From: a virus
Taxonomy: Duplodnaviria > Caudoviricetes
DNA: 64,000 bases
Virus record (IMG/VR): IMGVR_UViG_3300014204_000012
Location: 16,013-80,012 of that record
Direction: 5' to 3' (one strand)
Shown here: positions 2,884 to 52,774 of the stretch, in pieces
Layout: each line of letters starts with the position of its first letter
How positions within the stretch are numbered: position 1 is the stretch's first letter
Translations under genes and position numbers: made by a program
The notes under the pieces: model-generated
Seen by the model: the letters and a program-made list of their open reading frames with translations, nothing else
What the model was told of the DNA's origin: nothing
Databases searched by the model: none

Positions 2884-3831
2884 TTAGTGTACCACTTTCC
2901 CATTTATAATCCGCATGTTCTCCACCTGAAACAACTCACCATCGGTCTCCACAATCGCAAACCCATGATTCCACTTATTATACGGATCATAGTCAGCATA
3001 CAGATTACATAAACACCCGGTTGACCAACATGTAACAACCTTTTTATCCAAGTTTGGTTCAGTGTGTGAAGATGTCCTGTGAAAATGTCCAATCAGAGCA
3101 GACTTATGAGTATAAAGATACAACGATCTTGACGGGTTAACACCACCAGACCTCATACCAAGTTCGTGACCATGCAAAATAGGAAGACTTCCTGCCTTTA
3201 TGATTCTTTTGTCCTTAACACAATCTATACCAAGTTCTGGTAATCCCAATAGGTCTTCCACGTGGAACAAATCGGTCTGAAACAACAACGGTGCATTTTG
3301 CATCATGTAGATTTCCACACGGTCGTCATGGTTACCTATCTTGTACACAATTTTTGCCTCTGGAAGTTCTGACATCAACCATTGTAAAAATTGTTTAGTG
3401 TAACCAATCTCAGCTTTCCAATCTACCCTTCGTGGGTCTTTAAGGAACTTGCTTCCAGCATACCCATCCATTATGTCACCGTTCAAAACAACAGTGTTTA
3501 CTCCAACATAATTTCCGTAATTAACAGCAAGACTTATCGCATTGTTATCATGAAACGGAGCGTGAACATCAGATAACACCAGAATTTTGTTATTCACAAC
3601 GGGAAGAACATATGGCGAATAATCACGACTTTCCTCCGGTGGCAACAATGGAACATTTACGGAATTGTGCCTACTTCTTTCACCATCCGAACCCATATAC
3701 CACCGTACTCGTTTCCTTGCGTTCTCCAAGCTAATAAACAAATCCGGCCTGTCTTTAAAAAGTTCCTTCGCAATTTTCTTCTTTGAAAGTGTAGTATATT
3801 TCTGAATGTACTCTAAAACAACTTCTCTCAT
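2884..3831 (-). CDS. Calcineurin-like metallophosphoesterase
   Basis: LSDVH, NGDIMD, GNHD, HGHE and GHFH motifs in canonical order. Confidence 0.88.
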   Translation of the reverse strand: MREVVLEYIQKYTTLSKKKIAKELFKDRPDLFISLENARKRVRWYMGSDGERSRHNSVNVPLLPPEESRDYSPYVLPVVNNKILVLSDVHAPFHDNNAISLAVNYGNYVGVNTVVLNGDIMDGYAGSKFLKDPRRVDWKAEIGYTKQFLQWLMSELPEAKIVYKIGNHDDRVEIYMMQNAPLLFQTDLFHVEDLLGLPELGIDCVKDKRIIKAGSLPILHGHELGMRSGGVNPSRSLYLYTHKSALIGHFHRTSSHTEPNLDKKVVTCWSTGCLCNLYADYDPYNKWNHGFAIVETDGELFQVENMRIINGKVVH

Positions 3832-4517
3832 ATTTTATAGTTTATCCACCGCCTCTGAACATAACCCAAACCCTTCTCAAAGGTACAATATCTTTCGTCT
3901 TCAAGTTTTGTCCATAGATTCATGCGGAAATTAACAACGTCGCCAACATTTACATCAACGGCATCTTTCGCCTTTCTGTTTACATACCGTGAGTTCATCT
4001 TACCCACATATTTAACCACACCTTTTTTAAGGTTCTGTTTCTCCGTGTTGTCGGGAACAATGATATACTTGCTTTTCTCCTTTTCACGGTATTCCCCAAC
4101 CAGAACATACCCGTTTAGCGGAATAATACGTTCCCCACGACCACGTTTTACAAATATGATTTCCTGAAAGTCCACAAGAAAATAACGAACCCCGTCAACA
4201 ATTATAACGGGGCAGTTAAAGGATTCCACAAGTCCAAAATAGACCACATCACCAACCAAAAGGGTTTGTTCATCATATGGGAACTTCCAGTCCATACCGT
4301 GTCCGTGATCACGCTTATTGAACAACCTGTCTGGTTTTACACATACCACTCCGGTTCTCACAGCATGGCCAGATTCATCCCACAAAGAATCCCCACGGAT
4401 AATACCACTTTTGTACTCATCTGGAATAAGGTCTATTCTGACAAGCACTTTGTTGTTTAGGGTTTTCGAAGGAACACGGTCTGACGTTACGATTGATCTG
4501 TCTTTGTCGCCTATCAT
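3828..4517 (-). CDS. GroES-like co-chaperonin with two tandem GroES-like domains
   Basis: TLNNKVLVRIDL...GVV... and IIPLNGYVLV...IIVPD...KKGVVKYVGK...VNVGDVV; start refined to 4517 by ATGA overlap. Confidence 0.7.
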   Translation of the reverse strand: MIGDKDRSIVTSDRVPSKTLNNKVLVRIDLIPDEYKSGIIRGDSLWDESGHAVRTGVVCVKPDRLFNKRDHGHGMDWKFPYDEQTLLVGDVVYFGLVESFNCPVIIVDGVRYFLVDFQEIIFVKRGRGERIIPLNGYVLVGEYREKEKSKYIIVPDNTEKQNLKKGVVKYVGKMNSRYVNRKAKDAVDVNVGDVVNFRMNLWTKLEDERYCTFEKGLGYVQRRWINYKI

Positions 4518-4744
4518 CTGTACACGAATAAAACATTTGCATACCGGACAATATCTTTCCCATCCAACTCCGTACACCCGACACTGTCGTAAATAACTTC
4601 GTCACCAACAAAGAACTCCGGGGTTTCCACTTCTCCGGTTGAAATAACCTTACCCTTTTTCATGGATACCTTTTTGTTCGGTATGAATATCAAACCAACT
4701 TTCTCCAAGAATGGTTCAATAAGTATGTTGTTCCCTAATATCAT
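4514..4744 (-). CDS. groES: GroES-like co-chaperonin
   Basis: ILGNNILIEP...LIFIP...KKGKVISTG...VGDEVIY; 76 aa. Confidence 0.75.
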   Translation of the reverse strand: MILGNNILIEPFLEKVGLIFIPNKKVSMKKGKVISTGEVETPEFFVGDEVIYDSVGCTELDGKDIVRYANVLFVYR

Positions 4745-13090: not shown

Positions 13091-13885
13091 ATGGAAGAAG
13101 GATTACGATATAACGAAGGTAAGACCAGATACGATCTTCTGCCTCCTTTTGCAGTTGACCAGTGTGCCCGTGTGTTTACCTTCGGTGCCACAAAGTACGC
13201 CGAACGTAACTGGGAGAAGGGCATGAAGTGGAGCAACGTGTTGGCGTCTCTTAAACGCCACATTGCCGCCATTGAACGTGGTGAAGACTACGATAGTGAA
13301 ACCGGTTTGCTCCATGCCGCACACGCCATGTGTAATACTGCGTTCCTAACGGAGTACTACAAAATATACCCCCAGGGTGACGATAGGCCACATACTTATC
13401 TCCACAGGCCAAAGATAGGTCTTGACATTGATGAAATCTTGTCGGACTGGGTGAGGGCGTGGACTGATCACTTTGATATGCCTATACCAGACTCGTGGAA
13501 CTTCGACCGTGAAATAAAGGCCAAGTTCGACCAGATGAAAGATAATAAGGAATTCTGGTTATCCATACCCATAAAAACCCAACCTAAAGACATTCCTTTT
13601 GAACCACACTGTTATATTACATCTCGATCAATACCTGTTGATTGGACGATAGAGTGGCTTGATCTTAACGGGTTCCCCACGGCTCCGGTGTACTCCGTGA
13701 AGTTCGGTGAAAGTAAGATTGACGTTGCTAAGTCAAGCGGTATTGACATCTTCGTTGACGACTGCTTTCAGAACTTCGTGGAACTCAACAATGCCGGTGT
13801 GTGCTGTTTCCTGTTTGACGCACCCCACAACCAGCGTTACGCTGTTGGTTTTAAAAGAATACATTCACTTAGGGAAATTTTATGA
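13091..13885 (+). CDS. dATP/dGTP diphosphohydrolase (DUF5664-type) fused to a HAD 5'(3')-nucleotidase
   Basis: N-terminal RYNEGKTRYDLLP...GATKYAERNWEKG...SLKRH...ETGLLHAAHAMCN; C-terminal IGLDIDEIL...FVDD...LFDAPHN. Confidence 0.85.
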   Translation: MEEGLRYNEGKTRYDLLPPFAVDQCARVFTFGATKYAERNWEKGMKWSNVLASLKRHIAAIERGEDYDSETGLLHAAHAMCNTAFLTEYYKIYPQGDDRPHTYLHRPKIGLDIDEILSDWVRAWTDHFDMPIPDSWNFDREIKAKFDQMKDNKEFWLSIPIKTQPKDIPFEPHCYITSRSIPVDWTIEWLDLNGFPTAPVYSVKFGESKIDVAKSSGIDIFVDDCFQNFVELNNAGVCCFLFDAPHNQRYAVGFKRIHSLREIL

Positions 13886-14027: not shown

Positions 14028-14837
14028 ATGTGTAAAATCATAGCCTGGTGGAGTGCTGGTATTACTTCCTCTGTGGCTTGTAAGATTGCATTGGAATTGT
14101 ACCAAAATGTTGAGCTTTATTATATTTATATTGACACAGCACACGAAGATAATGCAAGGTTTAAAGCAGATTGCGAACGCTGGTATGGTTGCGAAATTAA
14201 AACTTTAAAAAGTAAAGAATTTAACAACCAATTTGATGTAATTGAAAAAACAGGAGCCGTAAATACTCCGACAGGTGCGCCGTGTACCTTGCATTTAAAG
14301 AAAAAAGTTCGTTTTGACTTTGAAAGGTTAAACGAATTGAGCCTTTTTAATACCCAAACTATCACGGGTCAGGTTTGGGGTTACGAATATGAACCAAAGG
14401 AAATAAACCGTGCAATTAGGCACTTACAACAATATCCAGATACAAAACCATTGTTCCCATTAATTGAAAGGGGATTGACAAAAGAAATGTGTGCTGGCTT
14501 ATTATTAAAAAATGGTATTGAATTGCCTGAAATGTACAAACTTGGCTACTCGAATAATAATTGCATTGGATGCGTGAAAGGAGGCAAAGGATATTGGAAC
14601 AAGATTAAAACCGATTTTCCACCTATTTTTAAGCGTATGGCGGATTTAGAACGCAGGGTAGGATATTCATGTATCAATGGTTTATTCCTAGATGAACTCA
14701 CGCCAGAAATGGGTAGGGCAAAGCATGAAATAATGCCAAACTGCGGAAATATCTGTGAGGTTGAATTTGCAGATATTCCAGATAAAAACTTGCAGGAAAT
14801 ATTGTCAGGTCGTAAAAGTATTTACGAAATTGCTTAG
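14028..14837 (+). CDS. PP-loop / PAPS-reductase-like adenine nucleotide alpha-hydrolase
   Basis: WWSAGITS, HEDNARF, LGYSNNNCIGCVKGGKGYW and C-terminal CGNIC. Confidence 0.72.
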   Translation: MCKIIAWWSAGITSSVACKIALELYQNVELYYIYIDTAHEDNARFKADCERWYGCEIKTLKSKEFNNQFDVIEKTGAVNTPTGAPCTLHLKKKVRFDFERLNELSLFNTQTITGQVWGYEYEPKEINRAIRHLQQYPDTKPLFPLIERGLTKEMCAGLLLKNGIELPEMYKLGYSNNNCIGCVKGGKGYWNKIKTDFPPIFKRMADLERRVGYSCINGLFLDELTPEMGRAKHEIMPNCGNICEVEFADIPDKNLQEILSGRKSIYEIA

Positions 14838-21305: not shown

Positions 21306-22106
21306 ATGAAAACAAATAATTTCAAATTGTTTAGGGTTTTATTATTGGCTGGTTTATTAAAGGAAAATATTAGGCGTGCTGACCTGAGCGGTGCTAACCT
21401 GGGAGGTGCTAACCTGAGCGGTGCTGACCTGAGCGATGCTAACCTGAGCGGTGCTGACCTGAGCGATGCTAACCTGAGCGATGCTGACCTGGGCGGTGCT
21501 AACCTGAGCGATGCTAACCTGAGCGATGCTAACCTGAGCGGTGCTAACCTGAGCGGTGCTAACCTGGGAGGTGCTAACCTGAGCTATGCTAACCTGAGCG
21601 ATGCTAACCTGGGCGGTGCTAACCTGAGCTATGCTAACCTGAGCGGTGCTAACCTGAGCGGTGCTGACCTGAGCGATGCTAACCTGAGCGATGCTGACCT
21701 GGGCGGTGCTAACCTGAGCGGTGCTAACCTGAGCGATGCTAACCTGAGCGGTGCTAACCTGAGCGGTGCTATTTATGACGAACATACGTATTGTGTTTGC
21801 ATAAACTGTCCCGAAGAAGGTTCTTTCATTGCATACAAGAAAGCACATGAAAAAATTGTTAAGTTACTTATCCCGGAAAAAGCTAAACGTAGTTCTGCCA
21901 CCTCCTTAAAGTGCAGGGCTAGCAAGGCTACGTGTTTGGAAATTGAAGGTGGATTAACAGAGGTTTCCTCTGATTACGATTCTAATTTTATTTATAGAGT
22001 AGGGGAAACGGTTGAGGTTACTGACTTTGATGAAAACCGTTGGAAAGAATGTTCCACTGGGATACATTTTTTTATGAACCGGGAACAAGCAAGACAATAC
22101 TTATGA
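21306..22106 (+). CDS. Pentapeptide-repeat protein with C-terminal DUF5758-like domain
   Basis: 26 A[DN]L[SG][GDY] repeats; [12 protein letters not shown]...[13 protein letters not shown]...ECSTGIHFF. Confidence 0.9.
21378..21767 (+). repeat. 26 x 15-bp tandem repeat
   Basis: Unit GCT(A/G)ACCTG(A/G)G(C/A)(GGT/GAT/TAT). Confidence 0.95.
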
Positions 22107-35378: not shown

Positions 35379-35762
35379 ATGAAAAAACTACTATTGATAA
35401 CACTATTTTCGCTGATAACCATATTGGGTTATTCACAGAATTGGTACAAGGGATACGATCCGTGGATAGCAAAGGATAAGGGGTTACACGTGGGGATTGA
35501 GTTCTTTCTACAATTTTCTGGTACTCAGATAATATTAGGAGATGGAGGAGAAAGGAAATATGCTGAACCTGCTGTTCTTGTAGCTACTTGCCTGGCGGGA
35601 ATAGGAAAAGAGTTTTGTGTTGATTCACAACCCAGTTATAAGGATTTAACAGCAGATGCTGTAGGAATTGTTGCAGGATTTTTATTAAGTAGACAAGTTG
35701 AAAGATGGCACAAGAATAAAGCATACAGGGTACATAAAAGAATGGAAAGGAAACGGAAATGA
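35379..35762 (+). CDS. Signal-peptide membrane protein, YfiM/DUF2279-like
   Basis: MKKLLLITLFSLITILGYS|Q; KDKGLH...GIGKE..D...SYKDLTADAVG. Confidence 0.6.
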   Translation: MKKLLLITLFSLITILGYSQNWYKGYDPWIAKDKGLHVGIEFFLQFSGTQIILGDGGERKYAEPAVLVATCLAGIGKEFCVDSQPSYKDLTADAVGIVAGFLLSRQVERWHKNKAYRVHKRMERKRK

Positions 35763-38635: not shown

Positions 38636-38848
38636 CTACGGGGCTTTGGGGTCTTTACTTATGAGTAGCAATAACGCCGCAATAACAGAACCCACATAGA
38701 GGATAATATCACCGGTGTCAATACCGAAGAAATCCTCCGGTTTGATACCACACAGCCGCAACACAATTACGAATATCATTGCGATACCCATTCCGGTAGT
38801 CAGTTTACTGCCACCGATGTTCCCAAGTGTTGACCTGTCCAGTTTCAT
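38636..38848 (-). CDS. Holin-like two-TM membrane protein
   Basis: MKLDRSTLG...GMGIAMIFVIVLRLCG...IILYVGSVIAALLLLISKDP; last gene of the late module. Confidence 0.55.
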   Translation of the reverse strand: MKLDRSTLGNIGGSKLTTGMGIAMIFVIVLRLCGIKPEDFFGIDTGDIILYVGSVIAALLLLISKDPKAP

Positions 38849-41829
38849 AATCCCGATGAATACCAAGTCCCAACACCACCAACCATACGATACACCAAGC
38901 GATACGCACCATAGTATCCATTTGTATCGAGTAAATTGTACACATCGAAGTTCTGTGTAGCCACATCTGGATCACCGGGATCGTCAAGGGTTATCACCAC
39001 CCGCATATATGTCGGATAGAAATAATGACGTGAAGCTATTAAATTCACATAGTCATACGTCGGACACAAGTCCAATACTTCCTCGTGCATACCGCCACCG
39101 TAGTTGGCGTACCTACCCTTATACGACACGTATGCGGTTATGCTGTCCTGAGTGAGAACAGTACGTGTCCACGAACCATCAGATAATGACCACGCACCAA
39201 CCTTAAATGTTCCATTGAAATCGGTAAGATTATAGAATGCTGTCGTATTGGGAACATCTAATGTTGACGGAGCCGTACCACAGGTATTAGCTATGGAATC
39301 GGTGTATCCGTCTACGGTCTTCTGTAACAGGATTTGTATGGTGTAATTCGGATCGTCGTAGGACACATTTGTTGTGTCGTAATGCGTGTACATCTTCGGA
39401 TACGTCACCGTTGTTCCGTCACCACAAAGTGCATTTGAAGACGCCGAGAACATCAACAGTTTGTAGTGGTTTACATTCTCCGGGTCACTGGAATACGATG
39501 TCATTTTCGTACTTGCCAATACAGTAAGCATCGAGTTCTTAAACAGATTGTAGTCGGTAAGGTTACGAGCCACCAGTTTAACCGTATCACTTGACTTGAT
39601 ATAAGAGATGGAATCGGTGAATGTCCGGCAACTATATCCCGAAGACGGAGTTTCCAACCACGCACAGTTTACATTCCTATTAAGGGATATTTTGAAGTCA
39701 TTACCCCAACGGTTAGATGTGGGAACGTAAGTCATGTTTGTTGCCCACCCGGATGTTTCAAAGATGTAATGCTGTACGTCATTCTGGATGTGTGCTGACT
39801 TATTTGAATAGGTTAAATCATAAGTCCCTGCTGAACCGTTCCACACCATCGTTATTGCTGCCGTGGTGTCAATAGTCTGGTAGTCCTTTTCAAATGGTGT
39901 ACACAGGTCGAAGTCCAGAGTGTCCAAGCATTTCCATGACAACCTCCAGTTGGTATTCGTGGAATACGGATCAATCTTGAACTTGATCTTATCCCCTGTG
40001 GCAACTGTTGGGAGTGTCGTTATCTTATTGAAGTACGATGAATATATATTGTGAAGTGGGAAGTTATAAGCACCATAAGCCGTACCCACCTGCCATGTCT
40101 CCAATAGGGTTTCAGTGGCTCCGTGGACAAAATAAACCCTTAAAGTGTCTATAACGTTCTCACCATAGAAGAACCACGGCACATAAGAAGTCGTCGCATC
40201 CAAGTCCATCGAAATCTCCCTGGTGGGGAGTTCGTCGGTATTCAACTCATAAGAATACGACACCGAATGTTCGTAGGCAATAGCTCCTTCCGTGTATCCA
40301 CTTCCGTTATCACAGATATAAGCTGCTGACACCACATCCGAGAGACAGGTGGCAAGATCTGGACTGTATGTACCCTGTTGTGTATAGGCAGAGACGTATT
40401 TCTCACCATTTACATACACCCATCTGATCACAGGGGTATAGGTTCCGCTAACTACAGGCATAGCACTCGTAAACGGCTGTAACACGTAATTGGTTATCCC
40501 TGCACCACTGGTGGCCGTGGTGAACTTAAATACGCCCCCCACATACCAGTCAATAACATAGTCACCCACCGTGGCTGTGGTGGAAGACAAGTCACCGATG
40601 TCAAGGTGTCCCACAGTCGGAACTATATCAGCGAGGTACAAGTTGGCAAAGTCACACATCTGAGCGGTAACAGTAACAGTGTCGCAAGGTGCAATAATGT
40701 CACAGATGTTCTTCCATCCAAAGTCACAGTCTGCATTGCTCAATTTGACAAGCACCTGACCTGCTAAACCACCCGGGGGAACGGGACAGCCATTGAGGGA
40801 GACGATAACACTGTCTGAACCTATCTTAATGTCTATTAAACTATCACCCTCCTCAACGTATAGCACGTGGTTATTGAACACTGTATCAATGTCGCCATCA
40901 TTCGCCACTATCCAATACACGGAATCCAGATCAGCAGTTCCACTTGACGTATTGATGTGTACCTTCCGGTGTCCTCCTGCACTCACATCGTACACGGGAA
41001 CCCAATCAAGAGTGTCGTAAGTTGAAGTGGTTAGTTCAGGAATGTCCATGTTCACAATCACGTTCCCGCTGGAGCTAAAGTAACCACCACCACCAAGTCC
41101 AATCCCTGCTGTCACACTTAGTTTAGTGGGATCAAAAGCAAGTACAATGGTGTGATCGGTGTTGTTCAGACTTATCGCCATGAAAGCCGAATCCACATCA
41201 ATTCCCCGGAAGTAGAATACATTGTCTGTGGTATTGTTCCACACCCCTATTCCTTCGTGGTTGCCATTCTGAGCATCGTAGAACCCTGCTGAATCAAACA
41301 CCTGTGTAATCGGTATCCAATATGCCTTACCGTTTATGTTTTGCAGTATATCCCCGGAGACACCGTCTGTGGCATTTAGTTTCGTTATCCTCAGTGAATC
41401 CCCGTCAAGAAAATAAAAGTTATTTGTGTTTATGGAATCCTCCACTTCCAGTGAGTTCATCACATGAACATCATACACGTTTGTATTGTATATTCCACCG
41501 TGAGTGTCCCTTTTCCACAGGGGATCGAGTAAGTCGAGAATCTTCAATACTTTCCAATTATACTTTACGTTATTGGACACTCTAATGTAGTTGTCACCTG
41601 TAACCCATAGCTTGTGCCAGTTAATTGAATCGGAACTGAACTGATGGTAGGTAACATCGAGAACCGGAATTATGGTATCCCGGTATGCAAAGTAACTTTG
41701 TGAGAACAGTGTGTCCCGTGCCATAAGGTTTCTATCATAGTCCCCTACGGTCAATGTGGATGGTGACACCACTGCCTGACCAAATCCAATCACGGGTATA
41801 AATAACAACAAAAACAAAAGTCTTTTCAT
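38845..41829 (-). CDS. 994-aa fibre-like protein with Sec signal peptide
   Basis: True start MKRLLFLLLFIPVIGFG|Q at 41829 (promoter TATCTTTG at 41851-41844); fibre motif PPGGLAGQVLVKLSNADCDFGW; 14 Cys; 21 D[ST][AILVMT]. Confidence 0.75.
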   Translation of the reverse strand: MKRLLFLLLFIPVIGFGQAVVSPSTLTVGDYDRNLMARDTLFSQSYFAYRDTIIPVLDVTYHQFSSDSINWHKLWVTGDNYIRVSNNVKYNWKVLKILDLLDPLWKRDTHGGIYNTNVYDVHVMNSLEVEDSINTNNFYFLDGDSLRITKLNATDGVSGDILQNINGKAYWIPITQVFDSAGFYDAQNGNHEGIGVWNNTTDNVFYFRGIDVDSAFMAISLNNTDHTIVLAFDPTKLSVTAGIGLGGGGYFSSSGNVIVNMDIPELTTSTYDTLDWVPVYDVSAGGHRKVHINTSSGTADLDSVYWIVANDGDIDTVFNNHVLYVEEGDSLIDIKIGSDSVIVSLNGCPVPPGGLAGQVLVKLSNADCDFGWKNICDIIAPCDTVTVTAQMCDFANLYLADIVPTVGHLDIGDLSSTTATVGDYVIDWYVGGVFKFTTATSGAGITNYVLQPFTSAMPVVSGTYTPVIRWVYVNGEKYVSAYTQQGTYSPDLATCLSDVVSAAYICDNGSGYTEGAIAYEHSVSYSYELNTDELPTREISMDLDATTSYVPWFFYGENVIDTLRVYFVHGATETLLETWQVGTAYGAYNFPLHNIYSSYFNKITTLPTVATGDKIKFKIDPYSTNTNWRLSWKCLDTLDFDLCTPFEKDYQTIDTTAAITMVWNGSAGTYDLTYSNKSAHIQNDVQHYIFETSGWATNMTYVPTSNRWGNDFKISLNRNVNCAWLETPSSGYSCRTFTDSISYIKSSDTVKLVARNLTDYNLFKNSMLTVLASTKMTSYSSDPENVNHYKLLMFSASSNALCGDGTTVTYPKMYTHYDTTNVSYDDPNYTIQILLQKTVDGYTDSIANTCGTAPSTLDVPNTTAFYNLTDFNGTFKVGAWSLSDGSWTRTVLTQDSITAYVSYKGRYANYGGGMHEEVLDLCPTYDYVNLIASRHYFYPTYMRVVITLDDPGDPDVATQNFDVYNLLDTNGYYGAYRLVYRMVGGVGTWYSSGL

Positions 41830-44274: not shown

Positions 44275-44964
44275 TTAAAAATAATAATTGTATAATGATG
44301 TTTTTTCAGCAGAAGATAATTCCCTATTAAAAACATATACTTGATCTATTTTAGAATCAGATTTATAATTTAAAAGTCCACCTACTGAAAATATAGCATT
44401 AAGAGAATTGAAACTAAGAGTAGCAGCAAGCGTCGCAACACTTTCGACTCCATCATCCATTTTGAATTTCATTTGATTACTCGCCGCATCCTTGTCATAA
44501 CTTGCGCAGAAGAAATGCCAATTTGATGTATCCGAAAGGGTTATGTCTATATGGTTTGAAGATGCCCCCACCGTTGACCAATGACCACAAAAAAACCTTA
44601 TTTTACCCCCCTCGTAGATAATACCATAACCATCATTCCATAAAGCCTGATTTGTACAGCAAACAAAAGGATCATCATTTGACAATGAATCTGCTTTCAT
44701 CCAAAATGAGATAGTAAATTTACTCAGGTAGAACGGTGAAGCATCATTAACATAATAGCCAATTAAATAAGCATCATTATTGAAATCATATGCTTTATCG
44801 CTAATATCATTTCTATCTGATGTTAAATTAGCACCAACATTTTCTTTAAAATGGTACCCATTACCAGATGTATCATTAATATTACCAGTAAAATCATATC
44901 TTGCGAGTAATCCAGATGGCATTATAAAACCACCAAATCTATATGGATTTAAAATATATCCCAT
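44275..44964 (-). CDS. LamG / concanavalin A-like lectin domain virion protein
   Basis: MGYILNPYRF...ARYDFTGNINDTSGNG...FTISFWMK...HFFCASYD...IDQVYVFNRELSSAE. Confidence 0.8.
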   Translation of the reverse strand: MGYILNPYRFGGFIMPSGLLARYDFTGNINDTSGNGYHFKENVGANLTSDRNDISDKAYDFNNDAYLIGYYVNDASPFYLSKFTISFWMKADSLSNDDPFVCCTNQALWNDGYGIIYEGGKIRFFCGHWSTVGASSNHIDITLSDTSNWHFFCASYDKDAASNQMKFKMDDGVESVATLAATLSFNSLNAIFSVGGLLNYKSDSKIDQVYVFNRELSSAEKTSLYNYYF

Positions 44965-45013
44965 TTTGTATTTTTCATGTACGTTAAACAACGGATTGAT
45001 TGACCTCTCCATA

Positions 45014-45559
45014 TCAGACACCCGTTTTTTCCCATCCCTCGTCTATATTCGGTTCCAACCCTGATGTTATCTCTGCTACCTTTGTCTTTAATGCCACATC
45101 GTTCTTCCATATCTTCACAGCCAACGCCAGTATCTTATTCTTTATCTCCTGTTCACTCGTGGTAAGTTTCATTCCGGATACCTCACGAAAGATCGTTGCA
45201 ATCCCAAGTGTTATCAATTTTAACTGTTCGGTGAATGGAAAAACCTGGTTATTCGCATCATTCTCTGCGTTGATTACCGACGTCTGTATGTCTGCTGCTG
45301 GTCTCTTGGGTGTATTAAAAGTAATTTGATACTGATTCAACCAATTATATTCAGGGTGTGGAATAGATGTAATAGCCTCCACCCTGTTAAGAATGAATAT
45401 TCTTGAATCATAGTCCGGCTCTGCACAAGGTTGTGTCTTAATTAACCACTCCAAATCTGGATCAAGACCCGAAATCGGTTGCATATCTTCACGTGGATAA
45501 TCTGCGTGTTTAAGAATCTCGCCTGTACTCTTTCTAATCAAAACTGCTGGTGTTCCCAT
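45014..45559 (-). CDS. Fibre-associated hypothetical protein
   Basis: 181 aa between fibre genes. Confidence 0.55.
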   Translation of the reverse strand: MGTPAVLIRKSTGEILKHADYPREDMQPISGLDPDLEWLIKTQPCAEPDYDSRIFILNRVEAITSIPHPEYNWLNQYQITFNTPKRPAADIQTSVINAENDANNQVFPFTEQLKLITLGIATIFREVSGMKLTTSEQEIKNKILALAVKIWKNDVALKTKVAEITSGLEPNIDEGWEKTGV

Positions 45560-45578: not shown

Positions 45579-47759
45579 TTACCTGTATCCTTCTAAAAAC
45601 ACTTTTAATCCTGCACCCGCAATGGTGCTACCAATCTGATCAACGTCAAACGTCAACAGATCATTTTTGTGTAACTGATAACTACTTGCTGCACCTGTGA
45701 AAGTTGATGTCTCCGCATATGTACCAGATGCCGCAATAGTCAACACTGCATTTAATATTGTTGTTCCACCGTCTTCAATGTCAACCTGCAAGTCAGAGTC
45801 CGTAGGAGCCGTCTTACAGGTCGCATACGCCCTCGTAACCTTAAAGTCGAATGGAACATTAACCGATAGCTTTTCGCCCGTTGTAAGGGCTGTGGTCTCG
45901 TCTGACAGGCAATAACCGGTGACCTCAAGCGCTGTCTTACTTGACCTCAATGAAAGCGATGTCATGTACTTCGCATCGTCTGTTCCGGTATCTACATCGG
46001 TGTATGCCGCCTTTGTTAGTGCCGCCTGTTTGTTGTTAAACGTATTCCAATCCGTTGAAGATAAATACCCGTCTACACTCGTTGATGCCGCCTGCGTTGC
46101 TACGGTCTTCTGTGCGTCTGTAAAGTGTTGATAATTTCCACCTGCCGCATTTAACCCCGCAAGGTTATCGTGTAATGTTATAAGCGGTGTTGAAAAGTGG
46201 GTGCTGTGGGTTGTTCCATTGTAAGCAACGGTAACACTCGTGGTGTTGTTGCTCGTAATGAAACCCATTTGACCGAACTTGTCCGTTACGGCAATGGCAA
46301 AAGCACCCTGAACACTTGTCTGATCGTATTGGAGATAATTAGTTCCAGTTGATGTTATAGTAGGTGACGTTGAACCAAATAATTTGTTCCACACATTGAA
46401 CGTAACAGCATTCTCATTGGAATATCCCGTTGGAACAATTATAGTCGCTGTATTTACATCTGATATTGCTGATATTTGATATATCCCAGAAGGGGTTTGC
46501 AGATAGGAAGCCACCGTGTTCGTGGCATTAGCCGCAAAGTAAGTTCCTGCAAACTGACTGGAAGTTATTGTTGCTGTCCTTGTATTTGCACCTACTCCGG
46601 AAGTTGTCACACTCCCAGAAGCCACAGGAACAACCTGATAAATCTGTCTTGTCACTGTGGTTACCCTACCACCTACAACAGAGTTCACAGCAGCAAAGGT
46701 GGTGAAATCCCATGTTCCTGCATCTATGGTTGTCCTCCCTAATGCGGTATCATACAGCCACGCCACATAAGCACGTGTATCACTTGCCGCCTGTCCTACG
46801 ATTGTTTGTTCTGCGGTAACCACAGGTGTCTTTGAAAGCGAAGCAACCTGTATTCCATTACCTGCCGTACCGTCCTGTTTTAGTCCAGTAGGAGTTGTAA
46901 TTGAATTTATAACTGGTGTACTATTGTAAAACTCAATACCTGCACTTGCTGAACTCGTCACGGGGGCACCGTTTACCCATTCTGTTCCATTAAACCTCAA
47001 CACCTGATCCGCAACGGCAGAACTAACAACAACGTCACTTATGTCATTTAGGGTTTGCATTGGCCGTATATTAACATACACCCTACCCACTGATGGGTCT
47101 TTGATCATTACCCTACCGACACGGACTTCGTATCTACCAGCACTTATAGAAGTAGCAAGTGTACCGGCGGTGTCACCAAGATAAAGTGAATCCCCTACGT
47201 TAAATGAGTTTGTGTTTAGTCCATTTACGTGCCCCCTGATTGTCACATGACCATACACCGAATCTGCTATGGATGCCGTTGTAACAACACCCAAAACAAA
47301 TGCCTTTGACACATCTGAATTATCCGCAAGTGCAATGGTGGGATACCCCCCGGATGCCCCGCTGATATAAACAACATTACCGGCTACCAAAGGAGAACCG
47401 GTATTATTTAGGCAATACGCTTGTGTTTCCTGCCCAACCTGTATGGTAACATCGGTATCAACTTCAATACCCATTGTCCTCCATAGTGCATCAAAGAATA
47501 CCTTTCCCTCTGCAAATGTTCCCACCGTTGGTGATGTATCCAATAAAAACCCTTCTCCAAATGTGGGTCTTCCGTTTATCACTGTTTGCGGTGTGGTTTG
47601 ATCCAACAGAAGCGTTGATGCACTCGATATGGGTGTAATCATAACGGGGTCAAGACCAGAATCAAATCCCAATACTTTCCCGTTCTCCGCTAATACCGAC
47701 TTTTCATCAAAAGTTCCACCGGAGTTCTCTTTTACTAATTTATATGTTCCGTCTGCCAT
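45579..47759 (-). CDS. Tail fibre protein, no signal peptide
   Basis: LNDISDV...ADQVLRFNGTEWVNG fibre repeat; C-terminal SDETTALTTG...TAPTDSDLQVDI...GSTIAGAGLKV module. Confidence 0.75.
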   Translation of the reverse strand: MADGTYKLVKENSGGTFDEKSVLAENGKVLGFDSGLDPVMITPISSASTLLLDQTTPQTVINGRPTFGEGFLLDTSPTVGTFAEGKVFFDALWRTMGIEVDTDVTIQVGQETQAYCLNNTGSPLVAGNVVYISGASGGYPTIALADNSDVSKAFVLGVVTTASIADSVYGHVTIRGHVNGLNTNSFNVGDSLYLGDTAGTLATSISAGRYEVRVGRVMIKDPSVGRVYVNIRPMQTLNDISDVVVSSAVADQVLRFNGTEWVNGAPVTSSASAGIEFYNSTPVINSITTPTGLKQDGTAGNGIQVASLSKTPVVTAEQTIVGQAASDTRAYVAWLYDTALGRTTIDAGTWDFTTFAAVNSVVGGRVTTVTRQIYQVVPVASGSVTTSGVGANTRTATITSSQFAGTYFAANATNTVASYLQTPSGIYQISAISDVNTATIIVPTGYSNENAVTFNVWNKLFGSTSPTITSTGTNYLQYDQTSVQGAFAIAVTDKFGQMGFITSNNTTSVTVAYNGTTHSTHFSTPLITLHDNLAGLNAAGGNYQHFTDAQKTVATQAASTSVDGYLSSTDWNTFNNKQAALTKAAYTDVDTGTDDAKYMTSLSLRSSKTALEVTGYCLSDETTALTTGEKLSVNVPFDFKVTRAYATCKTAPTDSDLQVDIEDGGTTILNAVLTIAASGTYAETSTFTGAASSYQLHKNDLLTFDVDQIGSTIAGAGLKVFLEGYR

Positions 47760-47770
47760 AATCTATATTT

Positions 47771-50700
47771 TTACCACGAGGATAACGGGGTTCTTTTCCA
47801 AACACTGTCTTGTACACATACATAAAAATAATTAATATCGTATGCCATTTGTCCAGCCATACCCGGTGATGTCTTTGTTGCTGGTGCTGCCACCCACAGG
47901 GTAGGTGAAGTTGGGTCTTGTTCTACTACGTTACCACTTGCGTCAACTGCTAAGAACTTTGTGGTTATTCCAGAGAATGTACCCGATCCATATTGGTCAA
48001 GTCTCATACTTCCATCACCTCTTATTGAGAAAAATGGAACAGTACCAAGATAATTGTAAACAGATAAGGCATCCTGCAAACTTGTGTCACCTGCCAATAT
48101 TTTAACACCATTACAGGTTGCAATGTTATTAGCAAAATATCCAGTATATCCACTATCGCAATCATTTACAAAGTACCCCGCATATCCTATGCTATCTGAT
48201 CCAACCATTCCCTGTACTCCCATATACGATCCACTTGACGTTGACCCTATACCCTGTCTTCCCTTCTTGGCGGCAAAATAACCACCATACGCATTAAATA
48301 AATTAGAACTTGTGGCGTTTATGGCATAAGTAGCATCTGTTTCAACATACAATCCATTTTTTGACGTATTACTTAATATAGACACCTTGTATAAGGTATC
48401 AGCAGGAGTGCCAATACCAACATTGTGATCGGTTGGACTTAAGTCAACACTGTTTCCATAATGTATCCACCCATATGTGGTCAATGAATCATGTACCTGT
48501 TCTGGTGTTGCAAAATTCATGGTGCTATCCGATACTGCCGTTATCCTACCTTTTTTATCAACAGTCAAATGGACACTCTTTAATTTGCTACCAAATGATC
48601 CCACATTTGCATTTACACTATCGAGGGTTGTGATAATCGGAGTCCCTGTTACACCCGTTCCAGTTACGTCACCATCCAGTTCAATATCTGAGTTGGTCAC
48701 AGGTTGTATTATACCCCCCTGAAGTTTTATATAGTCCATGTAAAAACCGATATGAGTTGATGGTGATAACCCCGTCTTTGACCACCGGTATGCAATTCCA
48801 TTGAATGTATTTGAACTAAAGTTCACCGCTGTTAATGGTAGACTTATGTTCTGCCACGTGTTTGTGAGTGCCTTGTTTATAGGCAGTACATACGGCATTG
48901 ACACCGCATGACCATTATAAGTAAATGTTACGTTTATATTCTGTCCGGAATACATCGTAGCCCTTAACTTAAAGTAGCTAATCAAAGTTGTGTAGTCCGA
49001 AGATGTTAAATCACCCGTGTGCGCAAACTTAATTGAATCATTACTCCCTACATTACTTATTTTAATATCCTTAACGCCACTAAAAACACCCGTTCCATTG
49101 TTGAAATCCGATGTTACGCCAACTGTTGTTCCTGTCCACTCCACGTTTTCATCGTACACCATTTCATCCGATGTGATAACGGTGTCCATATCGGTAACAC
49201 CAGCAGGAACCAATACCACCGTTAACTCAATTTGATATGACGGGTCTATTGTGGGTTTCTGTGGGTTTGCGGCAGGAACACCGGTCACGAAGTCAACTGT
49301 ACCCGTGGTGTCCACAACGATAATATCCAATCGGGGTAAGGTTACATCTGCCGAATCCAATGTCACACTGTCTGTGGGTGACGTATATAGTTGTCCTTCG
49401 ATATAATAAGCAGCAGGACTAATGTCAAACTTAAACCCTGTTCTCCACGATACATTGCCCCCGCTTATTAACCCATTAGGTTTTATGAGTGTGGTTACAT
49501 CATAGTCAACGCTGTCCTTTGTGTATCTTAAATACTCAATAGGAAACAACGAATCTCTAACTGCAAACACATCGGTTACAGAAGCCGAATCCTGTGCAAA
49601 GTCATATATGCTTTTGTCGAACTCAAAATACAAACTATCACTATTCCACACGGGAAACTGACCATCTGTGGGTGAACCATACACATCCGATAAAAAGGTT
49701 AGTTTCTGGAATATGGCACGGGACACAAATATCTCACCATTTCCAACTCCCTTAACCTGACACACACCCACACCTACGCTATTCAACGGAGGTTCCGGTC
49801 TTGTATTTGTTAATGTTCCCATTGCAGACACAAACACCGGCAATCCCTCTGTAAGGCCACTGGTATTTATCTGGTGAACCACCCCAAGAACCGTGACAAG
49901 TCCATAATCGTTTTTTACAATGTCTTGGGTTGTCACACCAATAAAGGTCATGGACAATGTGTCACTCGATATATCCGTCTTGACAACGTCAACATGAGAC
50001 CCACTTGCACTCACAAGACTAACCGGTGTACCATCTGGTATGGTAGTACCAGTCTTATTCCTTACCCTCACTAATGTTTCTTGACCTAACTGAAGAATGA
50101 CACCATCCGGTAGTCCCAAGTCAACGGTTTCCTCTGTGTTGTTCCACGAAAACCTTCCAATATCTTTGGAACTCGTTGTCGTTGTGTCAATTTGCACATA
50201 CGAAGTCGTAATACCATTTGTGTATATCCCATTTGTGGTGACACTGTCGTTATCGGTTACAAACTGTAAGTCTAAAGTATCTGTGTTGAACTCGGTAACA
50301 TCAATAGTATGTGGACTAACATTTCTCCACGTGGAATCAATGGTGGTAAACCTCAGTAATTGTCCCTCCGATGCACTATCTGTTACAACATCGAGAAAGT
50401 CAGATAAGTTAACAGTAGAAAAGTCTATCGTTAATCCCAGTGAATCATTAGGCATAATCGCCAGATAATGTATCCACGTGCTATCCATTGTTCCCAACGC
50501 TGTAAACCCTGCTGTGTCCTTTAAGGAGTAGTTTAGGTTTTGTCTTGCACCATTAGGATACGTGGCATACAATCCTGCCACCACGTATGTCGAATCCGGT
50601 AATGGTGTGCTGAATGTTATCCTGTTGTCCCCAGGCGGCATCCACACGCGCCCTGTACGGTAAAAGTCGTTTATTCCATACACGTTGCTACCACCACCCA

Positions 50701-51685
50701 CACTATCGGGGAATAGAATTGATATTTCTCCGTTTCCCCTGTCAACGAGGTGATCGTCTGCAACCCTTATTTTATTTACGCTGGTCACATAAGGATAACC
50801 GTCTTCCTCCATAACAGTTAATGGCGACCCACTGCCACCATTACCCGCTATCCACTGATTTGTTATGGAATCCCATGTTAACACCTGTCCATCCGTGGGA
50901 AATGCGTTAACATCGAGGGCATCGTTTATGTTTATCTGTAATAAATGCGAATGAGAAGCCGCAGACACCACGTTCATACTCGTTCCCGTTATGGTATCAG
51001 GAGTACCCAAATCAATGAAAAGTGTGTCATTAAGATATGTCGGTGTCAGTCCATCCCGTGCTATTATCACAGTGGAATCACCCGCCCCGGTGCCATACAG
51101 GTCGTCCCCGGCTATCCACTTCTGCACTCCTGCACTCCACTTCAATACCTGACCATCTGTCGGGTGTGCATCCACATCCTTAATATCATTCAGATAAAGG
51201 AATACAACATGAGTGTGTATAAGTGAATCCTGATAATTTGTGGTGGTTCCCGTCAGTGTATCCGGCATGGGTATTTTGATACTCTGCACATCATACAGGG
51301 TGTCTATCTGACTGCCGTAGTCAATCACTAAAGTATCTATCCTGCCACTTCCCTGTGTGGTATCTATTTTACCATTACACGTGCAAAAGTTAAATACCCA
51401 CCACGAGGCATCCGGGTGATAATCCGGTGCATCCGAAGTGGAGTTGTCAATGTAATTATTAAACCTGATATAGCAGTCCCCGGCATGGTAATCCTTGCTC
51501 CACGTGATACTATCAGCACTGAACTCGTGATATGTAATATCCAACACCGGAACATAAATGTGCCTATAAATGAAACTATTTTCTGTTTCAGTTATGTCGG
51601 TGCTTAAAATGTGGCGTTCCACTATCCCCTGTGAGAAGGCAATAGTGGAAAGCAGTAAAAAGAATATCGTTAATATTTTTCTCAT
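47771..51685 (-). CDS. 1304-aa tail-fibre-like protein with Sec signal peptide
   Basis: MRKILTIFFLLLSTIAFS|Q; repeated L.D..DV...PTDGQVL.W motifs; C-terminal GQMAYDINYFYVCVQDSVWKRTPLSSW; 36 D[ST][AILVMT]. Confidence 0.8.
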   Translation of the reverse strand: MRKILTIFFLLLSTIAFSQGIVERHILSTDITETENSFIYRHIYVPVLDITYHEFSADSITWSKDYHAGDCYIRFNNYIDNSTSDAPDYHPDASWWVFNFCTCNGKIDTTQGSGRIDTLVIDYGSQIDTLYDVQSIKIPMPDTLTGTTTNYQDSLIHTHVVFLYLNDIKDVDAHPTDGQVLKWSAGVQKWIAGDDLYGTGAGDSTVIIARDGLTPTYLNDTLFIDLGTPDTITGTSMNVVSAASHSHLLQININDALDVNAFPTDGQVLTWDSITNQWIAGNGGSGSPLTVMEEDGYPYVTSVNKIRVADDHLVDRGNGEISILFPDSVGGGSNVYGINDFYRTGRVWMPPGDNRITFSTPLPDSTYVVAGLYATYPNGARQNLNYSLKDTAGFTALGTMDSTWIHYLAIMPNDSLGLTIDFSTVNLSDFLDVVTDSASEGQLLRFTTIDSTWRNVSPHTIDVTEFNTDTLDLQFVTDNDSVTTNGIYTNGITTSYVQIDTTTTSSKDIGRFSWNNTEETVDLGLPDGVILQLGQETLVRVRNKTGTTIPDGTPVSLVSASGSHVDVVKTDISSDTLSMTFIGVTTQDIVKNDYGLVTVLGVVHQINTSGLTEGLPVFVSAMGTLTNTRPEPPLNSVGVGVCQVKGVGNGEIFVSRAIFQKLTFLSDVYGSPTDGQFPVWNSDSLYFEFDKSIYDFAQDSASVTDVFAVRDSLFPIEYLRYTKDSVDYDVTTLIKPNGLISGGNVSWRTGFKFDISPAAYYIEGQLYTSPTDSVTLDSADVTLPRLDIIVVDTTGTVDFVTGVPAANPQKPTIDPSYQIELTVVLVPAGVTDMDTVITSDEMVYDENVEWTGTTVGVTSDFNNGTGVFSGVKDIKISNVGSNDSIKFAHTGDLTSSDYTTLISYFKLRATMYSGQNINVTFTYNGHAVSMPYVLPINKALTNTWQNISLPLTAVNFSSNTFNGIAYRWSKTGLSPSTHIGFYMDYIKLQGGIIQPVTNSDIELDGDVTGTGVTGTPIITTLDSVNANVGSFGSKLKSVHLTVDKKGRITAVSDSTMNFATPEQVHDSLTTYGWIHYGNSVDLSPTDHNVGIGTPADTLYKVSILSNTSKNGLYVETDATYAINATSSNLFNAYGGYFAAKKGRQGIGSTSSGSYMGVQGMVGSDSIGYAGYFVNDCDSGYTGYFANNIATCNGVKILAGDTSLQDALSVYNYLGTVPFFSIRGDGSMRLDQYGSGTFSGITTKFLAVDASGNVVEQDPTSPTLWVAAPATKTSPGMAGQMAYDINYFYVCVQDSVWKRTPLSSW

Positions 51686-52281
51686 TATACACGTATTACA
51701 GCGAAATATGAAAGTCTACCAGCACGGATAACATCACCCACGGTGAACCCATTTGCTGTTCTGGAAGTCACAATCAAGTTATGTTGTAACATTCCGTTTG
51801 TGGCTATTACAGTGGCATCAAGTTCGTAATCCGCAGTTGCTAAAGGCGTGGTGAATGTAACATTGTTCACGCCAACCACACAGTCCACTGTCTGTGCCCT
51901 GTAATGGTCTGCACTGGAAGGAACAACCACAGGTGTAGGCACAACAAACGGAGGCACAGGTGTCGGGTTGGGATCGGTGTCGTCTGGAGCATAGTACTTG
52001 CTTAAATCCACGTCTTCAAACATACCGTGATAATGTTCAATCTTACCAAGTATCTCTATTAAGTTAGCCTCACTATACACGGCATTGCCACACATCAAAC
52101 TTCCACCTACGATGTCACAGTTATCCACAATACCCATTAGGTAGTGTATCCTGTGGCACTCCTGAAACCACTTTTGAAACCCTCCGTTAAATGAAAAAAT
52201 GGCATCCAATACACCATTCCCCCACTCAATAGTAGTCCTGGCACAGTCGGCCTTTATAACATTAAGTGTTGCTTCATTCAT
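51685..52281 (-). CDS. Virion protein with C-terminal H-type-lectin/gp53-like beta domain
   Basis: NNVTFTTPL...Y...TANGFTV...YFAV after a Pro-rich linker. Confidence 0.6.
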   Translation of the reverse strand: MNEATLNVIKADCARTTIEWGNGVLDAIFSFNGGFQKWFQECHRIHYLMGIVDNCDIVGGSLMCGNAVYSEANLIEILGKIEHYHGMFEDVDLSKYYAPDDTDPNPTPVPPFVVPTPVVVPSSADHYRAQTVDCVVGVNNVTFTTPLATADYELDATVIATNGMLQHNLIVTSRTANGFTVGDVIRAGRLSYFAVIRV

Positions 52282-52774
52282 AATTCAGCATTTCTTTTAT
52301 CAACCCGTGCCTCATATCGAAGTCTTCCTGTTTCTGATAGGCAACGTCTATGGTTTCTATGAGGTTCATTTCACTCAGCATCACATGGCACACGTGCAGG
52401 TTCTCATCCACCAAGTATTTATGCGCATACACGTTCACCAACCCCTGTTTGCTGTAAACCTTTTTAGTGGCCTCCAGGGTGATCCCAACACCGGGATGGT
52501 CACTTACCTGTCCGTTTCCTGAACTGAAATGTACCGTGTACCACCCATCTAATACGGCATACGTGGCACCCAAAAGGTCAACAGTTAAAACATCTGTCCT
52601 GCCATTTGTAATCAATTCTGTGGGTTCTGAACCTGCCAGAGTGTAGGTATTTACCAATGTACCACCACTGTAAACCGCAGCCACAATCGGTGCTGTAATG
52701 GTCTGTGTGTCTTCCTTCTTTATGGTTACGACATCCTGTGCCCTGTTCTTCTGAAGTTTTATCTGGAAACTCAT
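52274..52774 (-). CDS. Hypothetical virion protein
   Basis: 166 aa; promoter TATCTTTG at 52796-52789. Confidence 0.55.
   Translation of the reverse strand: MSFQIKLQKNRAQDVVTIKKEDTQTITAPIVAAVYSGGTLVNTYTLAGSEPTELITNGRTDVLTVDLLGATYAVLDGWYTVHFSSGNGQVSDHPGVGITLEATKKVYSKQGLVNVYAHKYLVDENLHVCHVMLSEMNLIETIDVAYQKQEDFDMRHGLIKEMLNYE

Follow-up and report, generated by a model that had tools for sequence, protein, structure and literature searches.

A predicted exported, sequon-rich fibre-like protein in the structural module of a tailed phage with a putative Bacteroidota host

Introduction

Bacteroidota possess a general O-glycosylation system that acts on non-cytoplasmic proteins only, occupies its motifs nearly fully and also modifies engineered motifs (PMC12871550). 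Here, we describe a 1304-aa fibre-like protein (P0001) of a tailed phage that carries the same D-(S/T)-(A/I/L/V/M/T) motif in large excess, shows a similar ranking of the third residue and starts with a predicted signal peptide that would meet the requirement for a non-cytoplasmic location. The protein is encoded in a stretch of 64,000 nucleotides (the window), corresponding to bases 16013-80012 of the 80,012-bp IMG/VR virus record IMGVR_UViG_3300014204_000012. Whereas the known substrates of the system are periplasmic, membrane and surface proteins of the host, the candidate here is a late virion-module protein of a phage with about 3.8 times the expected number of motifs. The review of the system does not mention phages (0 occurrences; PMC12871550). 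Bacteroidota O-glycosylation has so far been described for host proteins only, and a phage fibre that appears to be selected for an export signal and dozens of motifs connects this field with that of tailed-phage assembly.

A glutamine at position +1 of signal peptidase I (SPI) substrates, the Q-rule, is a Bacteroidetes-specific trait (PMC5837995, PMC10653852). It is shared by P0001, by a second fibre-like protein of the same phage and by all members of the protein family described below (43/43). Q-rule proteins are also encoded by phages of Porphyromonas gingivalis, where five genes of unknown function were proposed to modify the host envelope (PMC10367356); glycosylation is not mentioned in that report. 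In contrast to those genes, the ones described here lie inside a structural module and encode fibre-like products of 1000-1300 aa. Cellulophaga phage phi18:3 (GenBank KC821620.1), a cultured phage of Flavobacteriia whose portal is distantly related to that of the phage studied here, encodes proteins with Q-rule leaders (gp085-087, 547-785 aa) that are annotated as 'structural protein, experimental MS/MS'. Its proteomics is cited here from the GenBank annotation, which is silent on leader removal. The gp085-087 proteins differ from P0001 in that they lack its N-terminal module and are not enriched in sequons (1/5, 1/7 and 1/3 of their D-[ST] dipeptides). Homology to P0001 was not detected beyond the last 35 residues, and the tip of gp086 is weakly similar to that of P0001. 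In architecture, P0001 also resembles the MAT fibres of Bdellovibrio bacteriovorus, fibre-like trimers with a signal peptide, an adjacent conserved beta-rich domain and variable tips, some with an S74 chaperone (PMC10769870). These are bacterial proteins that serve prey recognition by a predator, and their N-terminal domains were compared with ours by description; the main text of that report contains no occurrence of 'glycos'.

A further likeness is the beta-tulip fold, which residues 532-662 of P0001 share with capsid cement and decoration proteins and with head fibres (Pam3, T1, HFTV1, lambda gpD, phi29 gp8.5). Unlike in those proteins, the fold is placed in the middle of a 1304-aa chain that has a leader. 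Decoration proteins bind to the outside of finished capsids, and some of them can be added late. Tailed phages are thought to assemble wholly in the cytoplasm. Their virion proteins can carry glycans, as in glycosylated mycobacteriophages, where phage-encoded glycosyltransferases act in the cytoplasm. The route proposed here for P0001 would instead use the periplasmic system of the host, and a glycosyltransferase was not found among the scanned proteins of this phage. We found no report of a phage fibre with the Bacteroidota sequon or with Sec routing; our coverage of the literature was incomplete and this is no proof of absence.

Results and Discussion

Sequon excess in P0001

The gene of P0001 is located as follows (all positions count from the first base of the window, unless stated otherwise):

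47771..51685, minus strand: gene of the leader-bearing, sequon-rich fibre-like protein P0001, 1304 aa

With the sequon defined as D-[S/T]-[AILVMT], P0001 contains 38 D-[S/T] dipeptides, of which 36 are sequons, giving a density of 2.8 per 100 aa. A hand count in the initial annotation had led to the same figures and was exact, including both exceptions, DSG at residue 1177 and DTS at residue 1200. The sequons were also correctly described as distributed along the whole length. They span residues 58 to 1293, and the three PTDGQ(V/F)..W repeats (residues 175-183, 263-271 and 672-680) are themselves free of sequons. In whole-protein shuffles (n=5000), 9.6 ± 2.9 sequons were obtained with a maximum of 21, and a binomial test gave p = 2e-12. 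The initial annotation had also proposed a permutation test on the third residue. Permuting this residue over the 273 [ST]-X contexts reached 36 sequons in 0 of 200,000 cases, with a maximum of 29 (hypergeometric p = 1.1e-13).

The excess depends on the aspartate. Compared to expectation, X-[ST]-[AILVMT] is enriched 3.8-fold for X = D and at most 1.4-fold for any other residue. The reversed motif is found near expectation (10 vs 9.5), and the Glu and Asn variants of the motif show no enrichment. Conversely, D-[ST] followed by a non-permitted third residue is depleted (2 vs about 14 expected). Among the permitted third residues the ranking is L>T>V>I>A. An artefact of a Thr/Ser/Asp-rich composition is ruled out by the shuffles together with the Asp-specificity. 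The earlier suggestion that composition cannot fix the third position therefore holds, as the excess is specific for Asp and lies beyond all shuffles and permutations. These results confirm that the sequon excess is real and highly non-random.

Predicted signal peptides and the Q-rule

The N-terminus of P0001 resembles a Sec-type signal peptide, which the initial annotation did not mention. The following features are referred to here:

51632..51685, minus strand: predicted Sec-type signal peptide of P0001, residues 1-18 (MRKILTIFFLLLSTIAFS), n-h-c pattern, Gln at +1
51446..51631, minus strand: N-module of P0001, residues 19 to ~80, common to the second leader-bearing protein (40% identity over residues 13-79)
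38845..41829, minus strand: second leader-bearing protein, 994 aa, MKRLLFLLLFIPVIGFG followed by QA, same N-module
38636..38866, minus strand: holin-like ORF of 76 aa that has two hydrophobic helices and overlaps the second leader-bearing gene at its end (assigned from its sequence)

Leaders were assigned by visual inspection and with a crude rule based on hydrophobicity. In P0001, MRKILTIFFLLLSTIAFS is followed by QG and has the classical n-h-c organisation with A-x-S (AFS) in front of the glutamine, so that SPI is predicted to cut before Gln19. Glycosylation is possible at all because the signal peptide would give the protein a non-cytoplasmic location. A lipobox is absent, with no Cys in or after the leader and the first Cys at residue 71. 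At E <= 0.01, P0001 also showed no match to a type IX sorting domain (CTD) family in Pfam or NCBIfam.

For the 994-aa protein, the likely start gives a Q-rule leader with a predicted cut site between GFG and QA. Apart from P0001 this is the sole sequon-rich ORF of the window, with sequons at 21 of its 23 D-[ST] dipeptides. Its gene has its own upstream region and is located directly before the holin-like ORF. The 14 Cys of the protein are all found beyond residue 347 and many are closely paired, which fits periplasmic disulfide formation. In an uncultured phage record of 735 kb (LR756501.1), one region matches residues 409-972 at 28% identity.

Genome-wide, four convincing leader-bearing proteins have sequons at 61 of 67 D-[ST] dipeptides (2.3 per 100 aa), compared with 49 of 125 (0.26 per 100 aa) in the remaining 70 ORFs that reach 100 aa or more (Fisher p = 4e-13).

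Outside the window, a 164-aa protein is encoded 6.2 kb before its start (G000:C1:9334-9828, minus strand; locus L004:9334-9828). The gene is placed between the 468-aa and 354-aa head-module genes, its start abutting the end of the 468-aa gene. The product has a Q-rule leader (MRKVLFSLIFVLSALISLG followed by Q) and sequons at 4/4 D-[ST] dipeptides. No family match was found in PHROGs, Pfam or NCBIfam, and the protein could be an exported, decoration-type protein. A leader (..ILGYS before Q) is further seen in a 127-aa protein (35379-35762, plus strand) with 0/1 sequons and a weak, below-threshold resemblance to YfiM-family lipoproteins.

A family of leader-bearing proteins sharing the N-module

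Relatives were collected in a search of 5.8 billion proteins and in an exhaustive HMMER search of 1.84 billion representatives. The family is small, comprising 21 clusters at E < 1e-30. Its members share either the N-terminal ~450 residues or just the first ~80, that is, the N-module. The region that follows the N-module is:

50306..51445, minus strand: remainder of the conserved N-terminal part, ending at ~residue 460 and containing two PTDGQVL.W repeats

Family-conserved sequons in the N-terminal region are located at residues 117, 128, 142, 153, 414 and 450. The C-terminal parts vary among members and include an S74 chaperone domain (PF13884 in the relative P0004), C1q and collagen repeats. 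A leader with Gln at +1 was observed in 43/43 members sharing the N-module, four of which seem shortened by gene calling. Across these members the leader sequences diverge, while the n-h-c pattern, the Gln at +1 and small residues at -1/-3 persist. Conservation in the family begins exactly at the predicted mature end, and the N-module was seen solely directly behind a leader.

Pooled over the family, 558 of 701 D-[ST] dipeptides are sequons (80%), 2.7 times the expectation. In 112 leaderless proteins that match the fibre repeats alone, the proportion is 445/959 (46%), 0.9 times the expectation (Fisher p = 4e-44 vs the family). The sequons are kept at 30-50% identity, their third residue changes only among the permitted ones and sites turn over from lineage to lineage, which argues for current selection on the motif. 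Five related viral contigs keep the gene order of a giant protein, a protein of ~170 aa, one of ~195 aa and the leader-bearing fibre. The same five contigs carry a second large leader-bearing protein, which adjoins a lysozyme-like gene in two of them; in the related contigs L010 and L011 the equivalent large leader-bearing gene comes after the lysozyme-like gene.

A tblastn search with the first 115 residues gave no match in 50,697 phage records, and hence no cultured phage among them has the N-module. An ESM Atlas look-up with residues 19-135 gave no usable match. Among 185,579 species genomes (one per prokaryote species), a single N-module relative was found (L017, JAWOAU010000067.1). This is a 21-kb contig in a metagenome-assembled genome labelled as a Thermoplasmata archaeon, which probably represents a mis-binned phage contig and is uninformative on the host. 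In Sunxiuqinia indica (L018, WVEM01000016.1, 93544-113338), a prophage that also has genes for a tape measure and an integrase encodes a leader-bearing 841-aa fibre homologue with 15/21 sequons; the next protein, of 389 aa, has a lipoprotein-type leader. A different, temperate type of Bacteroidota phage thus also possesses leader-bearing fibres. On the other hand, leader-bearing sequon-rich fibres were not found in Cellulophaga phi38:1 and Tenacibaculum Gundel_1, whose leaderless fibres show no clear excess, so that the trait is not general among phages of Flavobacteriia.

Paired comparison of leader-bearing and leaderless domains

Several domains of P0001 also occur in proteins without a leader, including two encoded by its neighbouring genes:

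50450..50671, minus strand: small beta-sandwich domain of P0001, residues 339-412 (pLDDT ~90)
51685..52281, minus strand: 198-aa leaderless protein, directly upstream of the fibre in all related loci
45579..47759, minus strand: 726-aa leaderless fibre-like protein that contains a copy of the beta-tulip region

Residues 123-197 of the 198-aa protein are a paralogue of fibre residues 338-412 (hhalign probability 97.6%, E = 4e-12). In the beta-sandwich domain of P0001, three sequons are located in inter-strand loops or turns, and the homologous C-terminal domain of the leaderless 198-aa protein has none. Over the fibre region 338-418, the 13 leader-bearing proteins have 40 sequons in total, and the 6 leaderless paralogues have none. 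The C-terminal half behaves similarly: homologues with 34-44% identity in the alignment contain 0.1-0.7 sequons per 100 aa when leaderless and 2.0-2.8 when leader-bearing, the latter set including the Sunxiuqinia indica prophage protein. At aligned site 711, DS[ILV] in leader-bearing proteins is replaced by D[GVP]x or HPx in leaderless ones, and at site 1053 DS[TLI] corresponds to TES, END, NVA and similar tripeptides. The beta-tulip copy in the 726-aa neighbour is 29% identical to fibre residues 506-671, and this protein shows no sequon enrichment (4/10 D-[ST]).

A metagenome protein, P0172, starts like the leaderless 726-aa neighbour (MAEGTYKLIKENS...) and continues as a homologue of the C-terminal half of the fibre (window 47774-49615), indicating that tips are exchanged between leaderless and leader-bearing fibres. 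This leaderless version is sequon-poor.

The initial annotation had raised the possibility that the excess merely reflects a structural repeat shared with fibres of phages outside the Bacteroidota. This was not observed: in Pseudomonas, Nitrincola, Synechococcus and Acinetobacter phages the homologues are leaderless and not clearly enriched in sequons (z -1.1 to 2.3). The link to Bacteroidota O-glycosylation that it had drawn gains support, with the excess confined to leader-bearing proteins and absent in leaderless homologues of the same domains.

Domain anatomy

Two AlphaFold models of P0001 are poor overall (mean pLDDT 55 and 50) and confident in three or four domains. Besides the beta-sandwich domain, the following parts are distinguished:

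49700..50092, minus strand: beta-tulip domain, residues 532-662, fold of phage capsid cement/decoration proteins
48716..49153, minus strand: jelly roll of the carbohydrate-binding-module (CBM) type, residues ~845-990 (7t7y, Z 14.8, rmsd 3.0, 141 aligned)
47774..48148, minus strand: C-terminal tip, residues 1180-1304, resembling cyanomyovirus fibre/structural proteins at their ends and, weakly, Cellulophaga phi18:3 gp086 at its end

For the N-module, the models gave no usable structure (pLDDT 28-48). The beta-sandwich domain resembles tailspike and pyocin fibre tips as well as H-type lectins (Z about 7). For the beta-tulip domain (pLDDT about 71-93), the matches are Pam3 8hdt_G (Z 11.3, rmsd 3.1, 126 aligned), HFTV1 8qsy (Z 10.7) and T1 9kzj (Z 10.2), followed by the phi29 head-fibre base (gp8.5 6qyy, Z 6.7) and lambda gpD 1c5e (Z 5.6). 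However, this fold is no proof of capsid binding, because an autochaperone fragment of phi29 gp12 has it too (Z 7.9). By sequence, the relatives of residues ~497-692 are 'tail fibre' proteins of Pseudomonas phage Rollin, Nitrincola 1M3-16 and Roseobacter CRP-6. The jelly roll matches many CBM families at Z 10-13. Sequons in confidently modelled regions (residues 364, 390, 401, 575, 883 and 1293) are found in inter-strand loops, in turns or at strand starts.

No family for P0001 was found in Pfam or NCBIfam, and PHROGs gave a weak tail-connector match only (PHROG 677, E = 2e-4). The gene has several attributes of a tail fibre gene: it belongs to the tail module, its synteny is conserved, the N-terminal 450 aa of the product are conserved while C-termini vary, and tblastn matches are to tail fibres, whose names are database annotations and not experiments. 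P0001 is a putative virion tail fibre with one decoration-type domain, and its apparent Sec leader obscures its route to the virion.

Genome, gene order and host

The 80,012-bp record has direct terminal repeats and its completeness estimate is 'complete'. The virion genes form a minus-strand block, starting with terminase and portal (outside or at the edge of the window) and continuing with genes for a 2584-aa, a 166-aa and a 198-aa protein and P0001. After P0001 follow the genes for the 726-aa, a 181-aa, a 248-aa (Laminin_G_3) and a 598-aa protein. The 166-aa protein is a conserved member of this arrangement:

52274..52774, minus strand: 166-aa leaderless protein, conserved syntenic neighbour

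The ATG of P0001 overlaps the stop codon of the upstream gene (TAATG). P0001 is a late gene within the structural module, translationally coupled to the upstream tail-module gene. Relatives of the portal were found only in phages of Flavobacteriia (Cellulophaga, Flavobacterium, Tenacibaculum, Maribacter), at 19-24% identity. Together with the Q-rule and the Sunxiuqinia prophage homologue, this suggests a member of the Bacteroidota as the host.

Proposed route and alternative explanations

Our data suggest that P0001 is probably exported by Sec, cut by SPI and O-glycosylated by the general system of the host. The pre-protein would be exported unfolded via SecYEG. SPI would then cut before Gln19, and a host glutaminyl cyclase may convert this residue into pyroglutamate. 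In the periplasm, the host O-glycosylation machinery would glycosylate Ser or Thr in up to 36 sequons. For these steps we rely on sequence signatures that appear to be under strong, specific selection. The steps that might follow are speculation guided by the gene position and one cultured relative. The protein might fold in the periplasm, probably as a trimer, and might meet the particle built in the cytoplasm only once holin action or lysis mixes the compartments. Docking could then take place through the shared N-module or the decoration-like domain; alternatively, P0001 could act as a free extracytoplasmic protein.

We slightly favour attachment of the exported protein to the virion after holin action or lysis. 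A virion role is favoured because of the gene position, the translational coupling, the synteny, the presence of the N-module in two long proteins and the decoration-type domain, and also because the annotation of phi18:3 gives MS/MS as the ground for calling its Q-rule proteins gp085-087 structural, with the tip motif recurring in gp086. The broader idea would be that a tailed-phage lineage of Bacteroidota completes its virion outside the cytoplasm, with fibre- or decoration-like proteins that are sent through Sec, trimmed by SPI and coated with host O-glycans docking at holin action or lysis. We put this forward tentatively, as a possibility that falls a little short of an even chance.

Several points weigh against this proposal. 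Export, processing and glycans are all read from sequence, and the leaders were called by eye and by the simple rule given above. Since both models are poor overall, the placement of sequons could be read in the confident domains alone. The host is assigned at the level of the phylum, and an O-glycosylation locus in the host species is presumed. The leader-bearing relatives P0014, P0017 and P0018, like gp085-087 of phi18:3, show no sequon excess, so that a leader alone does not imply selection for glycans. At site 883, D[ST][IV] is found in leader-bearing and leaderless proteins alike, making it the only site that looks structural, and several family-invariant sequons of the N-terminal domain (e.g. 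IDT[IL], PDT[ILV]) could be structural too. A virion role in particular is disfavoured by the N-module never occurring without a leader and by the position of the second leader-bearing protein in the lysis region. Furthermore, we know of no route from the periplasm to a tailed-phage particle.

The confinement of the N-module and the position of the second leader-bearing protein would fit a protein that is exported and glycosylated but does not become part of the virion, remaining a free periplasmic, surface or released protein. Such a protein might mask or bind host receptors or glycans against superinfection, prevent progeny from sticking to debris, or aid lysis and release. We consider this the less likely fate. 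An N-module that is confined to the position behind a leader suits a job in the envelope as well as docking, and the second leader-bearing protein adjoins not only the holin-like ORF here but a lysozyme-like gene in related loci. There are known cases of phage proteins that are exported and act in the envelope, and the Q-rule proteins of P. gingivalis phages were proposed to be such modifiers (PMC10367356). Leader-bearing fibre-like proteins of Bdellovibrio with a conserved N-terminal domain likewise act in the envelope (PMC10769870), and the swapping of C-terminal tips with leaderless fibres, as in P0172, would be expected of a soluble receptor-binding mimic. These arguments are countered by a gene that is embedded in the virion module, translationally coupled and conserved in synteny, and by the detection by MS/MS, according to annotation, of the leader-bearing phi18:3 proteins as structural. 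Neither a type IX sorting domain nor a lipobox was found that could deliver P0001 to the cell surface, and two long proteins with a common N-terminal module are the usual pattern of receptor-binding proteins docked to the virion.

Two further explanations dispense with export or with glycans. The hydrophobic N-terminus might not serve Sec but act as an assembly leader or membrane tether that is cut by a phage protease, the sequons being relics of captured secreted domains of the host. Assembly of tailed phages is cytoplasmic in all studied cases, and signal peptides predicted on major capsid proteins of P. gingivalis phages were suggested to be cleaved by the prohead protease (PMC10367356). 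We nevertheless regard this as improbable. Every member has Gln at +1 and small residues at -1 and -3, a combination that is the signature of host SPI and cyclase (PMC5837995). Moreover, relics would hardly be kept at 30-50% identity with permitted third residues only and with turnover between lineages, which speaks for current selection, and leaderless versions of the same domains lost their sequons or never had them. Least probable of all, in our estimation, is that beta-rich fibres use the D-[S/T]-hydrophobic tripeptide structurally, for instance as a turn leading into a strand, its excess being unrelated to glycans. The invariant N-domain sequons, site 883 and the location of sequons at loop-to-strand junctions in confident model regions are what such an element would predict. 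The paired controls largely refute it, since the motif is absent from leaderless paralogues and homologues of the same domains. A clear excess is also missing in leaderless fibres of the same phage, of phi38:1, of Gundel_1 and of non-Bacteroidota phages, whereas it recurs in two further leader-bearing proteins, the second large one, whose sequence is unrelated, and the 164-aa one. Lack of enrichment of the reversed, Glu and Asn variants likewise speaks against a structural element.

Export and glycosylation by the host, as preferred here, would predict phage appendages with host-made glycans, affecting stability and host recognition and possibly also the way in which such phages are perceived by Bacteroidota of gut or marine habitats and by the immune systems of animals. 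It raises the question by which path an exported protein reaches the particle. If completion outside the cytoplasm is true, the virion would bear host-type glycans on its host-recognition appendages, in parallel to the use of the secretory pathway by enveloped eukaryotic viruses. The family also provides naturally occurring candidate substrates, rich in sequons, for work on the O-oligosaccharyltransferase. For annotation, signal peptides predicted on structural genes of phages are not to be discarded as mistakes.

Other genes of the phage

The 248-aa protein of the tail module (44275-45021, minus strand) contains a concanavalin-like Laminin_G_3 lectin domain (E = 3e-10) and has neither a leader nor a sequon excess. 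A 249-aa protein (3828-4577, minus strand) carries a Cpn10 co-chaperonin domain in its C-terminal part, and Cpn10 is also found in Cellulophaga phi38:1 and phi18:3. On the plus strand, at 13091-13885 and 14028-14837, a dATP/dGTP diphosphohydrolase N-terminal domain (PF18909, E = 8e-33) adjoins a PAPS-reductase-like protein; the pair may serve the modification of DNA bases or the nucleotide pool. On the same strand, 21306-22106 encodes a protein with pentapeptide repeats and, at its C-terminus, DUF5758 (E = 2e-49 and 1e-35).

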